Positions 35,706 through 39,795 are shown, numbered from the stretch's first letter. The stretch is DNA of 64,000 bases from Candidatus Omnitrophota bacterium (GCA_041651455.1 JBAZJG010000005.1:3882-67881); one strand, 5' to 3'. The notes: a model not told the origin generated them from the sequence alone. Numbers and translations are program-made.

Positions 35706-35734
35706 TTGACGACCTTCCGTACGCGTAATACAAT
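35706..35734 (+). promoter_or_regulatory. Sigma70-type promoter upstream of the HTH / TolC-like / giant gene operon.
   Basis: TTGACG (35706-35711), 17-nt spacer, TACAAT (35729-35734). RBS ggaggaaggag lies before ATG 35767. Confidence 0.45.
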
Positions 35735-35766: not shown

Positions 35767-35961
35767 ATGGACATAGGCGCGAAATACATAACTATGGAAG
35801 AGGTCGTGAATTACTTAAGCCTTAGCGAGGGCAGTATCCGTAAACTTATACGGGAACAGAGTTTCCCGCACGTAAAGGTGCTCAGGAAATATCTGTTCAA
35901 TAAGCAGGATGTCGACGCGTGGCTTAAGATGCATTCACAGGGCCTAAGGGCAAATAAGTAG
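35767..35961 (+). CDS. Small helix-turn-helix DNA-binding protein (excisionase/MerR-like HTH_17 type).
   Basis: 'ITMEEVVNYLSLSEGSIRKLIREQSFPHVKVLRKYLFNKQDVDAWL' is the typical excisionase-family HTH. Confidence 0.6.
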   Translation: MDIGAKYITMEEVVNYLSLSEGSIRKLIREQSFPHVKVLRKYLFNKQDVDAWLKMHSQGLRANK

Positions 35962-35985: not shown

Positions 35986-38900
35986 ATGCTAAGCCAAAAT
36001 TGTAAGAAATATATTATATCATTATCCATCGCGCTCGCGATGTCGTTTCCGTCGATGTCGTGCCCCGGGGAATTAGATTACAATAAGCTTTCGCTTGAAG
36101 CCGCGCTGAACAGGATGTATGAAGTAGACCCCGAAATACAGATAAGCAGACTCGCATGCGATGCGTCCCTCCTCGAGATAAAAGCAAGGAAACTCGATAC
36201 ATTCATGCCGAAGCTCAGCGTCGGCGTCAGTATAGTCAAGCCGGTCGATATCTTCACGAAACTTGACCAGCAAAAAGAGATGTTCTTTGAACAGCAGGTT
36301 ATCATAGAATTCGCCGTGACCTCAAACAGCTTCAACCATATCCTTAAGGACAGGAAAGGGTACGAAGCTAGCATGCTCGAATTGAAGCAGGCGGTTTCCG
36401 AAAGGAGCCGTGAGCTCATCACCGTATATTACGCCGTCGCAAGGGCCCAGGAGAATTACAGGTCCAGCTGCGATAACATCGAGACAGTCGAGAAGGTCCT
36501 GAAGATGGTCGAAAACAGCAATGAATATACGGACGTCGAAAAACTCGAGATAAGGAACTATCTTGCCGTGGTCACGGAAGAGAAGTTAGGCGCGCTGAAT
36601 ACGCTCATCAATACGAGAAGAGACCTCCGCGGGCTTCTCGGTCTGGAGAACAGGGAAGATATCGATATAACCGTCGAGGAACTGCCTGATAATATCAACA
36701 ATGACATCGCCTTCTATGAAAACCCGTTGATAAGGCCGGCGGATTACACCCTCGACATATATAAGAAAAGGGGTGAGGCTGCGGACGTGGCCTCCCGGAT
36801 CAGCGCGTCTCCCTTATTGAAATTTTCTTCCGCGACGATCCTCGGCATCGCCGAGGGCAGGTTCACGAAACTCCAGAAGAAAGTGATAACTGATACGGGA
36901 GTGGAGTTGCATATAACCGACTTTGGCTATACCGGAGGCCTCAATGATGTAAGCAAGATTAATTCGCAGATAGCGAGGTTGGAGGTATTGAAAGCAGAAG
37001 AGGACCTTGAGTATTCGGATTTAATAGCGAACGGCAAACTGGCCGAACTAAGCGGCCTAATAGATAATTACAGGGAATACATAACGAAGACGGAAGACAT
37101 GTTGAGGATGTTCAGGGAACGCCTCTCCTTGCCGGTCATCGAGATAATAAGGATGAACGATAATCTCTATAAGGCCAAGTATGCGATGCAACAGGCGCTC
37201 GTCGATTATACGGTCATGCTCTCGAACCTTAAAGGTGTCGAGCTGAAACCCGAACAGACCAGCCCTCAATACCAGGATATGAGCTTGGAAGACCTGCTTG
37301 CGAGGGGCGAGAGGAGTGACATCCTGACCGTCAAACAGATATCCGAGAAGAAGATGAGGATGGAAAACGTCAGGATCAACGCGACAAAGGCCGGATATTT
37401 CCCGAAGATCACCGGTGCGGCCATACTTGAGAACGCGAACATAGACGGCGTGCCGTCGCAGGCTACGAGGGCTTACGTTGCGCTTGAAGGGCAGCTCTTT
37501 AACTTCAAGAACGGGCAGGCCATCAGGGCAGCGAAGGCCAGCATGGAAGAAATCAGGTACGAGGGCGCCGCGCTGCAGAACGTGGTCGCGGATGAGATAA
37601 TAAAGAACTACCTGTTCATATTAAGGAGCAAGAATACCTTAAAATGGCTGAACGAGATCAAGGGGATAAAAGACGACATAATACGCGATATGCTGGAAAA
37701 TATGGAAGGCAAGGGCCCCAAATATAGTAATTCGGATATACTGCCGCTGGTCCTGCAGCAGATGGAGCTGGACAGGATGATGGCGGATGCCGAGTTCTCG
37801 CTGGCGGTCGTCGAGTATAGCCTCAAGAAATGGACCGGCATACCGCTCAACGAGACGATAAGCGTAAAGGAGCTCCCGGCGTTCGGGGAGGACGAAGGGC
37901 TCTCAGGGTTCATGGCGCTGATCCGGTCCAAGGTGGCGCCGTATTTCGACGGTAAGGCGCCGGTAAAACAAGCCCTGAGCGCCGTCGAAAAGAACAGGGC
38001 GGAAGAGGCGCGGGCCGTCGCGTATGATGGGGCGCTGCTCCAGGTAAAATGCGAGACGAAGGGCATGGAATATAAGGGATGGCATGATCCCGACAGGCAG
38101 GTGTCTTTCAGCGTCTCCGTGCCGTGGGGCGACCGCAGGGAAAAGATAGCCAGGTCTGAGGCGGCGAGGACCCGCATCAAGTCGGAGATCGAGTATTTGA
38201 AGAGCATGGATGCTTATGAAAAAGAGAGGTTATCCGTCAAGACCTCCTACGATTCATCGAAAGCGCTCCTTGAAGACCTGCGCAGCAAGAAGGAGAATAT
38301 GGAATCGCAGTACAGGATAACCGAGGAACTTTACCGGTTCGGCGGCCGGACAAAGAAGCAGATGGTTGATTCCAAGCTGGATTTCATAGTAGCGCAGATG
38401 AGCTATGAGGAAGCCGTCCTTGACAACTATTACCACAATGCGAGGGAGCTGCTGGTAGTGGAGAAAGATGCGGAACCCGAAGGCAGCGAAAGGATATTGC
38501 TGGCCGGATTGCAGGAAGCGATAGACCTTGCCATGCAGAACAGCCGCGAAATAAGGAAATACGAGGAGAGCCTCAAGCTCGAGAAGGAAACATTGGATTA
38601 TTACAAGACGGTGAGGATAAAGGGCGATATCGGAGGGGATTCCTATATAATAGATAACAAGGGCTGGAATGAGACAAAGAGGGTCAAGACCGCGGGGATC
38701 GTCGCGACCGCCGACATTGACCTCGTGAACAAATATATGGTGAAAGTCCAGCAGCGCAGGATCGAGCTTGCCGAAAAGGACCTCGAGCAGGCGAAGTTCG
38801 ACCTGACCCTGAAGGTCGCGGATGCCTACTCGGGCTACCTCGGTTCGCTCGCGGAGACCTCGGAAGTCCGCAAGGAATACGAGAGGCAGAAGACGGTCCT

Positions 38901-39795
38901 GGCGGAAATGGAAGAGCTTTTCAAGGCGAAAGCGATAGCGCATGTGGACCTGCTGAAGCAGAGGGAGTTCGTAGAGAGCCTTCTGCAGAAGTACATCGAC
39001 ACCAACAGGTATACCGAAGGGCACAGGAACAGCCTCGGCATTGCCGTCGGAGGCCTCGACCCGAGGTTTTCGGTCGTGAACACCGAGGTTTACGACAAGT
39101 CCGCCCGGCGCGTCGCGCTTACGGAAGATTTCGAGATCAAGCAGAGGCTGTTGGACGAGCTTACATCCGCGAGGCAGGCGCTCCAGGGACTGCTGCAGGA
39201 TGATCTGCTCAAGCGCGCGGAGATCAAACTCGACATGGCCAGGCTTGATACCCAAGCTATATCAAAACAGGTAAAGACGCTCGCGGTCAACCTCGAGTAC
39301 ATATACCTTACGGATTTCATGGGACTAATAATGAGGGATGAAGCCGCCTTCTCGCGTTATGACAACATGTCGGAGTTTTTCTCGCTGAACTCCATAGACC
39401 AGATATTCAATCCCGCCACCGGGACTAAGGCGAGGATTGCGGCGATAAGCGAGAAGGTCGCGGCATTAAGGTCGAAGTCATATACGAAAAACGTTGTCCA
39501 GGACGCGTTGAGGAGGTTTACCGATTACCAGGTGGCCGTGGCCGATTACGCCAACTACGAGAAGAACGAAACGGTGCTGGAAAACGAGATGGCCGAGAAG
39601 ATGCGTATGGAAGAGGCGGCAGGGAACACGGCCCTGATCAGGCAGAGGGAGCTAAAAGAGACGATACTTAACAACAAGATAAAGAAGATACAGGCATTCT
39701 ACAGGATGATGAAATTTATGAACGAACTGGACCGTTATCTGATAAGATATACTTCAAAAGGCATAGAATCATACGTAACATTCGTCACAAAATGA
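35986..39795 (+). CDS. Unusually long (1269 aa) TolC-like outer-membrane channel protein (OEP family repeats plus extensions).
   Basis: Signal peptide. 'LSLEAALNRMYEVDPEIQISRLA' is a TolC-type N-terminal motif. Recurrent OEP-type coiled-coil/beta segments ('AIRAAKASMEEIRYEGAALQNVVADEIIKNYLFIL', 'EELYRFGGRTKKQMVDSKLDFIVAQMSYEEAVLDNYY'). The stop overlaps the next start (ATGA). Confidence 0.55.
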   Translation: MLSQNCKKYIISLSIALAMSFPSMSCPGELDYNKLSLEAALNRMYEVDPEIQISRLACDASLLEIKARKLDTFMPKLSVGVSIVKPVDIFTKLDQQKEMFFEQQVIIEFAVTSNSFNHILKDRKGYEASMLELKQAVSERSRELITVYYAVARAQENYRSSCDNIETVEKVLKMVENSNEYTDVEKLEIRNYLAVVTEEKLGALNTLINTRRDLRGLLGLENREDIDITVEELPDNINNDIAFYENPLIRPADYTLDIYKKRGEAADVASRISASPLLKFSSATILGIAEGRFTKLQKKVITDTGVELHITDFGYTGGLNDVSKINSQIARLEVLKAEEDLEYSDLIANGKLAELSGLIDNYREYITKTEDMLRMFRERLSLPVIEIIRMNDNLYKAKYAMQQALVDYTVMLSNLKGVELKPEQTSPQYQDMSLEDLLARGERSDILTVKQISEKKMRMENVRINATKAGYFPKITGAAILENANIDGVPSQATRAYVALEGQLFNFKNGQAIRAAKASMEEIRYEGAALQNVVADEIIKNYLFILRSKNTLKWLNEIKGIKDDIIRDMLENMEGKGPKYSNSDILPLVLQQMELDRMMADAEFSLAVVEYSLKKWTGIPLNETISVKELPAFGEDEGLSGFMALIRSKVAPYFDGKAPVKQALSAVEKNRAEEARAVAYDGALLQVKCETKGMEYKGWHDPDRQVSFSVSVPWGDRREKIARSEAARTRIKSEIEYLKSMDAYEKERLSVKTSYDSSKALLEDLRSKKENMESQYRITEELYRFGGRTKKQMVDSKLDFIVAQMSYEEAVLDNYYHNARELLVVEKDAEPEGSERILLAGLQEAIDLAMQNSREIRKYEESLKLEKETLDYYKTVRIKGDIGGDSYIIDNKGWNETKRVKTAGIVATADIDLVNKYMVKVQQRRIELAEKDLEQAKFDLTLKVADAYSGYLGSLAETSEVRKEYERQKTVLAEMEELFKAKAIAHVDLLKQREFVESLLQKYIDTNRYTEGHRNSLGIAVGGLDPRFSVVNTEVYDKSARRVALTEDFEIKQRLLDELTSARQALQGLLQDDLLKRAEIKLDMARLDTQAISKQVKTLAVNLEYIYLTDFMGLIMRDEAAFSRYDNMSEFFSLNSIDQIFNPATGTKARIAAISEKVAALRSKSYTKNVVQDALRRFTDYQVAVADYANYEKNETVLENEMAEKMRMEEAAGNTALIRQRELKETILNNKIKKIQAFYRMMKFMNELDRYLIRYTSKGIESYVTFVTK

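Follow-up and report, generated by a model that had tools for sequence, protein, structure and literature searches.

A triple-length TolC-family gene with six OEP repeats

In a 64,000-nucleotide stretch of DNA from Candidatus Omnitrophota bacterium (GCA_041651455.1 JBAZJG010000005.1:3882-67881; herein the window, with positions counted from its first letter), an open reading frame (ORF) at 35986 through 39795 of the plus strand encodes, from an ATG start, a 1269-residue protein of the OEP/TolC family of outer-membrane ducts (herein the duct protein), which databases label merely "TolC family protein". Its gene overlaps that of a 3075-residue partner (39792 through 49019, plus strand), which comprises an N-terminal transmembrane (TM) segment, a periplasmic module of ~1570 residues, a second TM segment, a glycosyltransferase (GT) domain resembling those of FKS1 and BcsA, and a multi-TM channel region. 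The duct protein carries six OEP repeats in one chain, which we regard with high confidence as three TolC protomer-equivalents. It belongs to a rare family, has a predicted fold of the TolC type, and is strictly paired with the synthase at the level of genes.

The N terminus, MLSQNCKKYIISLSIALAMSFPSMSC, has the basic n-region and hydrophobic core of a signal peptide, which by direct reading of the sequence and comparison of family N termini spans residues 1 through 26 (35986 through 36063, plus strand) and ends in ...SMSC. The National Center for Biotechnology Information (NCBI) model of the same protein (P0001, 1251 residues) begins 18 residues later and would drop this signal peptide; the long start is also used in the homologs P0002 through P0005. 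Besides the window protein, those family members whose start is credible also have a signal peptide. Across the family it is single and N-terminal only, and no second hydrophobic segment with a 19-residue hydropathy mean above 1.6 was found in the duct protein. Cys26, which a comparison of family N termini finds kept only within the window protein's subclade, might be a lipidation site. The ORF, signal peptide, OEP/TolC pattern, and ATGA overlap described in the initial annotation of the window are all real, and the ORF is no chance frame, since full-length, collinear homologs of 27 to 88% identity lie on many independent contigs. The label "double-length" given there is wrong for a protein three times the size of a TolC protomer; its own figure of 2.7-fold was nearer.

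A canonical outer-membrane factor (OMF) protomer has two OEP repeats. The Pfam OEP model (PF02321) matches the whole duct protein in five stretches (E = 8.8e-23; 81.5 bits against a cutoff of 22). The sequence was split into six pieces of ~210 residues, each tested alone against OEP. Pieces 1 through 5 each match (E = 9.2e-9, 3.7e-3, 2.3e-5, 4.9e-4, and 5.2e-10, respectively); piece 6 gives no OEP match in the window protein, and its equivalent does match in the collinear relatives L005 (9.2e-5), L006 (1.9e-5), and L009 (1.3e-3). The N terminus of the OEP model falls at residues ~37, ~436, and ~842, and an OMF-type start motif stands at each of these positions (LSLEAAL, MSLEDLL, and GLQEAIDLAM), which together define three units of ~399, 406, and 432 residues.

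Unit 1 (residues 33 through 431; 36082 through 37278, plus strand) starts with LSLEAAL, holds OEP repeats 1 and 2, and has hairpins at residues 76 through 112 and 278 through 311. Unit 2 (residues 432 through 837; 37279 through 38496, plus strand), starting with MSLEDLL, holds repeats 3 and 4, with hairpins at 474 through 504 and 683 through 715; unit 3 (residues 838 through 1269; 38497 through 39792, plus strand), starting with GLQEAIDLAM, holds repeats 5 and 6, with hairpins at 876 through 912 and 1098 through 1141. All three are assigned from OEP matches and the AlphaFold2 (AF2) model, unit 2 also from hhalign, and unit 3 also from a comparison of its profile with the Protein Data Bank (PDB), which reaches CmeC (2.8e-5) and OprJ (3.8e-4). 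A phmmer search of the PDB with the whole duct protein found nothing. With six repeats and 1269 residues in one chain, the protein does not match an OMF-type protomer (two repeats, ~450 to 500 residues); the size of OMF family members, taken over ~5000 of them, is reported as 472 ± 30 residues (PMC4827864).

Proteins of this kind are rare. An exhaustive HMMER scan of 1.84 billion representative proteins gave only 11 matches at E ≤ 1e-3. Eight are full length (1266 to 1369 residues), collinear over residues 2 through 1200, and 27 to 88% identical, and nearly all of the full-length clusters bear an Omnitrophota label; the sole significant OEP protein of canonical size had an E value of 9e-4. Among 185,579 GTDB species representatives, a query alignment of four sequences, which reaches closer relatives only, found six loci, all in metagenome-assembled genomes of the Omnitrophota type; four bear the label Omnitrophota/Omnitrophica and two that of "uncultured Planctomycetia". 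The window protein itself comes from a source labeled Candidatus Omnitrophota. P0006 is labeled Dehalococcoidales and L016 and L018 "uncultured Planctomycetia", yet these sequences are 76 to 77%/62% identical to Omnitrophota sequences, and the Dehalococcoidales and Planctomycetia labels are probably binning or labeling errors. Relatives also keep ordinary OEP genes (423 to 476 residues), so the triple form is a specialized extra. In the literature, covered mainly outside subscription journals, we found no fused, single-chain, or pseudo-trimeric TolC and no account of this gene pair; papers on Omnitrophota biology and giant genes, on TolC in Omnitrophota, and on bacterial GT48 enzymes likewise gave no description.

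Tandem paralogs can be fused by frameshift or by chimeric assembly in metagenome-assembled genomes (MAGs), and the gene might on this account be a misassembled or miscalled fusion of three adjacent TolC genes. Such an artifact is scarcely credible, however: the frame of 1266 to 1369 residues is uninterrupted on more than 20 independent contigs that differ in sample, assembler, and lineage and reach down to 27% identity, and the lone signal peptide lies at the N terminus.

Predicted fold and divergence of the three units

The AF2 model spans residues 33 through 1232 and was built on an alignment of 13 divergent sequences, to which an exhaustive search contributed relatives of 23 to 38% identity. 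It has a mean predicted local distance difference test score (pLDDT) of 82.7 and a predicted template modeling score (pTM) of 0.74. Six hairpins account for the long β-strands of the model, which number exactly 12; there are also six helices of 62 to 68 residues, each with a return helix of 30 to 37 residues after it (the sixth return helix being shortened by the trim at residue 1232). Alternating hydrophobicity is strong in 8 of the 12 strands. Set against the TolC structure (1EK9), these elements amount to three protomers' worth, and the tunnel helices have the canonical length.

A Foldseek search of the PDB returned OMF protomers as all of its first 43 matches (among them TolC, ST50, OprM, OprN, OprJ, SilC, CusC, CmeC, VceC, MtrE, and TOprJ1), with alignments of 354 to 472 columns, mostly 406 to 472. 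Template modeling scores per target are 0.62 to 0.75 for the 39 well-fitting matches and 0.46 to 0.49 for four CusC conformer chains; per query they are 0.15 to 0.28, mostly ~0.27. High target scores together with query scores of ~0.27 mean that one third of the model accommodates a solved protomer in its entirety, and hence that the extra ~800 residues are two more protomer-equivalents. The TolC/OEP assignment of the initial annotation thus stands, the OEP model being matched and the predicted fold having strands and OMF structural matches rather than being all-helical. The coiled-coil extension that it supposed to span an enlarged periplasm or form a cap is instead two complete protomer-equivalents, each with two hairpins and with helices of 62 to 68 residues; a longer tunnel or cap made from the extra length is ruled out by helix lengths and strand count.

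A TolC-type duct is the textbook obligate homotrimer, in which each chain provides four strands of a shared 12-stranded barrel. As inferred from the pTM, the number of strands, and the way in which OMF protomers superpose, a single chain of the duct protein would close such a barrel alone. It might instead oligomerize, for example as a trimer, to give a far wider pore or three ducts clustered together; all characterized OMFs are, to our knowledge, trimers, and AF2 was run on the monomer only. Against this, the model already gives one chain the full TolC set of 12 strands and 12 tunnel helices, the pTM of 0.74 implies that the 1200-residue monomer is confidently arranged and self-contained, and the units are nonequivalent and equally conserved, as expected of fixed positions in one barrel. 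We consider further oligomerization very improbable.

Self-BLASTP of the duct protein detected no internal repeat, and hhalign between the units detected nothing with 7 close sequences. With 10 divergent sequences, all pairs of units align in register, if weakly (units 1 and 3, E = 5.4e-4; units 1 and 2, E = 2.5e-3 over 329 columns; units 2 and 3, E = 8.6e-3), and the unit profiles give partial alignments of low probability to the canonical 423-residue OEP protein of L006. Conservation across the family is equal for the three units (mean column identity 52 to 54%). The six periplasmic helix-turn-helix tips, which in canonical TolC are the adaptor-docking site, differ from one another, and each has a family-conserved motif (for example PKY..(D/E)ILP in tip 3, G(G/A)RT in tip 4, and GAI(T/A)..DYLK in tip 5). 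At the sequence level the duct is strongly asymmetric, its units having drifted so far apart that they can scarcely be recognized as related; the fusion is an old one, and the units seem each to occupy a set position that is not equivalent to the others.

Pairing with an FKS-like synthase

The duct and synthase genes share an ATGA stop/start overlap at 39792 through 39795 (plus strand), an arrangement found at 10 of the 13 family junctions examined; the remaining three have gaps of 3 to 33 nt. No Shine-Dalgarno sequence precedes the synthase ATG in the window, which is consistent with coupling by termination and reinitiation. The triple TolC gene is followed directly by a Glucan_synthase ORF of 3038 to 3170 residues in each of the 20 loci where the DNA extends far enough downstream (the window, L001 through L003, L005 through L009, L011, L013 through L019, L022, L023, and L026), down to 27% identity; in L004 and L010 the start of the synthase gene is visible before the contig ends. 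The initial annotation had coupled the ORF to a giant gene encoding an inner-membrane glucan synthase. Both points are borne out: the stop overlaps the ATG of the 3075-residue ORF, and the giant gene is FKS/GT48-like. The dedicated export route it proposed gains support from a pairing that holds in every testable locus and down to 27% identity; its remark that this is not the usual TolC partnership needs qualifying, as precedents exist. We think it fairly probable that the duct is dedicated to exporting the product of the synthase.

The triple TolC might also not be a polymer conduit at all, its role being to anchor or tether the partner's periplasmic module at the outer membrane, or to act as a general efflux duct that is merely co-transcribed. 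Strict adjacency over deep divergence, with frequent overlap, however, speaks for a stoichiometric partnership; ordinary OEP genes remain available for general efflux; and the model retains the channel elements, with 12 strands and full-length tunnel helices. A role other than that of conduit seems to us distinctly improbable.

Hydropathy places one TM segment of the partner at residues 12 through 30, after a basic N terminus, and the next at 1603 through 1621, so that ~1570 residues are periplasmic (residues 31 through 1602; 39882 through 44597, plus strand). There follow a cytoplasmic stretch of ~285 residues, a TM cluster, the cytoplasmic GT domain, and further TM segments; in all, ~15 predicted TM segments flank the FKS1/BcsA-like core. 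This Glucan_synthase (GT48/FKS-like) core spans residues 2139 through 2587 (46206 through 47552, plus strand; Pfam PF02364, E = 2.4e-24, 86.1 bits against a cutoff of 37.2). Compared with the PDB, the GT region matches FKS1 (7yuy, 2.6e-8) and, more weakly, BcsA (4hg6, 5.6e-6); FKS1 residues ~809 through 1273 are aligned, and the DAN and ED motifs are matched. The core is invariant, at 60 to 83% identity across the family. In eukaryotes GT48 enzymes make β-1,3-glucan.

Within the periplasmic module, residues 162 through 271 (40275 through 40604, plus strand) form a GH76-like (α/α)6 segment (Pfam GH76, 1.5e-9), and the family profile of the module matches α-1,6-mannanases in the PDB at 1.3e-7. 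Identity across the family is 43 to 78% for the module, above the 27 to 62% of the duct. Neither a TPR nor a porin domain was detected by Pfam, and the component on the outer-membrane side is of the OEP type.

Relatives show variations on the partner and its surroundings. In L011, whose relative is 28% identical, the stretch just upstream of the gene pair (5023 through 9107) encodes a GH16 protein as well as a histidine kinase/response regulator pair; GH16 is a β-1,3/1,4-glucanase family, the protein also matches SKN1/KRE6 weakly, and its gene hints that the polymer is a β-glucan. In L020, from a Candidatus Aureabacteria MAG (GCA_016933315.1), the partner is split (57 through 4874 and 4921 through 7162) into a 1605-residue GH76-containing protein and a separate Glucan_synthase gene after it, which shows the periplasmic module and the synthase to be separable modules, fused in the window's lineage. 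Distant relatives of the GT core (44 to 46% identity) lie inside far larger frames in L028 (61 through 13017), L029, L030, and L031. One of these frames encodes 4318 residues and three are open across the whole locus of 17.7 to 20.8 kb (>5908, >6915, and >6941 residues), so the FKS/GT48-like domain also occurs inside Omnitrophota "giant genes"; no triple-TolC HMM match was found in the visible part of these loci.

A scan of ORFs across the 64-kb window turned up no membrane fusion protein (MFP)/HlyD gene, and no MFP or pump gene adjoins the duct gene, whose conserved partner is the glucan synthase. MFPs are symmetric hexamers matching threefold-symmetric TolC. Under a conventional tripartite scheme, the triple TolC would need a separate HlyD/MFP adaptor encoded elsewhere, and the periplasmic module would trim or bind the polymer. 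Both known glucan-TolC systems use an MFP: XcsA-XcsB-TolC, with an HlyD-like XcsB, which secretes glucan in cyanobacteria (Maeda et al. 2018, via PMC12430437), and BgsA-BgsB-TolC, with the MFP BgsB, which secretes mixed-linkage β-glucan in Sinorhizobium meliloti (PMC13438883). Further points in favor of this scheme are the GH76-like and in no way adaptor-like character of the periplasmic module, and the GT2, weak BSH_CzcB (MFP-like), and canonical OEP genes just upstream of the pair in L006 through L008. On the other side, no MFP gene occurs among the scanned window ORFs or beside the pair in L001 through L005, L009, L011, and L013; symmetric hexameric MFPs suit a threefold TolC, whereas the duct here has six different tips; and the MFP-like gene of L006, which is accompanied by a GT2 gene and a canonical OEP gene of its own, looks like part of a separate system. 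A tripartite arrangement is the strongest of the alternatives and still an unlikely one.

The L006 set itself (3606 through 9681, directly upstream of the pair; also in L007 and L008) consists of a GT2 synthase (510 residues), the weak BSH_CzcB/MFP-like protein (342 residues), two unknown proteins, and a canonical 423-residue OEP protein on the opposite strand. It may be an Xcs/Bgs-type tripartite glucan system beside the unconventional one.

Immediately upstream of the duct gene in the window, a 64-residue HTH_17 (excisionase/MerR-like) protein is encoded at 35767 through 35961 (plus strand; Pfam HTH_17, E = 1.5e-11), and the same small HTH gene also precedes the triple TolC in L001 through L003 and in L005 (38% identical); the protein is a possible local regulator. 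A sigma-70-like promoter candidate, TTGACG-17-TACAAT, at 35706 through 35734 (plus strand; pattern match, 10 of 12 consensus positions) likely starts a transcription unit of the HTH, triple-TolC, and synthase genes. Two genes upstream in the window, Pfam identifies a dCache-HAMP-GGDEF diguanylate cyclase (32877 through 34454, plus strand). Its counterpart lies directly downstream of the synthase in L006 through L008, L009, and L027; the gene recurs in three lineages, and it may give the pair a cyclic di-GMP (c-di-GMP) input. Between the GGDEF gene and the HTH/duct/synthase unit lies a gene for a 410-residue MORN_2-repeat protein (34436 through 35668, plus strand), which overlaps the GGDEF gene end by 19 nt and is kept in the close relatives L001 through L003.

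Downstream, a convergent 459-residue ORF without a Pfam match (49012 through 50391, minus strand) overlaps the last 8 bases of the giant gene; it holds the same position in L001 through L003 and has a promoter-like site of its own (50427 through 50399). Farther away are two genes for T2SSE/PilB-PilT-type secretion ATPases (57416 through 58867 and 61028 through 62128, plus strand), and type II/IV secretion-like loci have been described near Omnitrophota giant genes (bioRxiv 10.1101/2023.11.21.568195). At the beginning of the window, four successive ORFs (383, 336, 404, and 1038 residues; 33 through 6553, plus strand) have no Pfam match at E ≤ 1e-5. The rest is housekeeping (EF-G, RuvCAB, Tgt/QueA, SecDF, RecJ, RecG, fab genes, ETF, DnaG, and RpoD).

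A proposed export route and its relation to known systems

The explanation that we favor overall, and hold to be probable to a modest degree, is a single-chain, pseudo-trimeric duct dedicated to the polymer of the coupled synthase. Six OEP repeats fused head to tail behind one signal peptide would form this outer-membrane duct, with one polypeptide giving all 12 barrel strands and the 12 helices of a periplasmic tunnel of canonical length (~100 Å). The duct would be the dedicated outer-membrane exit for the polymer of a monomeric, processive FKS/GT48-like glucan synthase, and polymerization itself would drive extrusion, as in BcsA-type synthases. The ~1570-residue periplasmic module, GH76-like domain included, would probably bridge the periplasm, dock on the six tips, and replace an HlyD-type adaptor, and the neighboring dCache-HAMP-GGDEF sensor may provide c-di-GMP control. 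One duct chain would be made per synthase chain; such a 1:1 ratio fits the stop/start coupling better than the 3:1 ratio of a homotrimer. Dropping threefold symmetry by means of a single chain would be sensible if the partner is monomeric, asymmetric, and extrudes one polymer chain; apo Fks1 has been reported to be monomeric (PMC12715860).

Some parts of the scheme carry less confidence than the dedicated duct. That the synthase docks on the duct 1:1 and without an adaptor is plausible, and we would put it somewhat below an even chance. We advance with equal reserve a two-gene, adaptor-less secretion machine, in which glucan would pass through the periplasmic conduit of the synthase into an asymmetric single-chain TolC at a 1:1 ratio set by translational coupling. 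It is similarly tentative that, within such a machine, the three protomer-equivalents diverged to dock a partner without threefold symmetry.

Several observations weigh against the proposed route. Concerning the fold, the profiles of units 1 and 2 reach no solved OMF in the PDB by sequence, the unit-to-unit hhalign probabilities of 5 to 30% are statistically weak, only 13 sequences underlie the AF2 model, and an earlier AF2 run on 7 near-identical sequences gave a pLDDT of 41.6. As to the partner, comparison with Pfam and PDB profiles finds no recognizable domain in the periplasmic module beyond the GH76-like segment and nothing adaptor-like, and Pfam finds no PilZ or other c-di-GMP receptor domain in the synthase. 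The dCache-HAMP-GGDEF gene is recurrent and not universal, being absent beside the pair in L011, L013, and L023, and an unlinked adaptor may be encoded elsewhere in the genome. Finally, adjacency of the duct and synthase genes is no proof of physical contact, and the pairing was tested from the duct side, the distant synthase relatives showing no visible upstream regions.

If the proposal is correct, a single-chain TolC would here be met in nature for the first time, as would a bacterial link of a eukaryote-type (GT48) glucan synthase to an outer-membrane duct. A natural, fused, and diverged version would show that the TolC fold can be built from one chain, and it would allow gating and docking to be studied position by position, where a mutation in a homotrimer shows up three times; it also raises the question of how the β-barrel assembly machinery (BAM) folds a fused triple TolC. 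The strict pairing points to an undescribed polysaccharide route across the diderm envelope, with neither an HlyD adaptor nor a BcsC-type porin, and draws attention to bacterial relatives of the fungal echinocandin target and of plant callose synthase. For the Omnitrophota, an uncultured phylum of ultra-small, possibly host-dependent bacteria, it offers a concrete hypothesis about the cell surface.

The duct protein resembles the OMF/TolC family (TolC, OprM, CusC, CmeC, and VceC; TCDB 1.B.17) in its OEP repeats, in predicted hairpins that alternate with long antiparallel helices, in its N-terminal signal peptide, and in a motif of the L-S/T-L-x-E-A-L type, which in the duct stands at the start of each unit. 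Members of that family differ in having two repeats per chain, in forming symmetric homotrimers, and in serving RND, ABC, or MFS pumps. Barrels of 12 strands are made either by three chains of four strands, as in trimeric autotransporters, or by one chain, as in classical autotransporters. The duct would be the single-chain counterpart of the three-by-four TolC barrel; the autotransporter families are unrelated, and the analogy is architectural only.

The partner shares its catalytic core and the DAN and ED motifs with Fks1 and plant callose synthase (GT48). It differs from Fks1 in being bacterial, in its ~1570-residue periplasmic module and outer-membrane duct, and in a possible c-di-GMP rather than a Rho1 context. 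As in the Bcs, Pga, Alg, and Pel systems, an inner-membrane synthase/translocase is combined with a periplasmic glycoside hydrolase-like part, a way out through the outer membrane, and a neighboring diguanylate cyclase gene; the GH76-like domain has parallels in the periplasmic hydrolases BcsZ (Bcs) and PslG (Psl). The exit in the Bcs, Pga, Alg, and Pel systems is a 16- to 18-stranded porin fused or bound to TPR scaffolds (BcsC, PgaA, AlgE/AlgK, and PelB), whereas none of TPR, porin, and PilZ was detected in the window pair.

The closest parallels are the Xcs and Bgs systems. They resemble the window pair in joining an inner-membrane processive β-glucan synthase to a TolC-type duct and not to a BcsC/PgaA-type porin; c-di-GMP is involved in them, and the window pair has a GGDEF neighbor. 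The Xcs and Bgs systems have a GT2 synthase, a separate HlyD-type adaptor, and a housekeeping homotrimeric TolC encoded elsewhere, whereas the window pair has a GT48/FKS-like synthase with a fused ~1570-residue periplasmic module, no adaptor gene nearby, and a dedicated duct coupled to it by gene overlap. Relative to Xcs and Bgs, the novelty lies in a duct fused into one chain, a partner of the FKS type, and the lack of a separate adaptor gene nearby.

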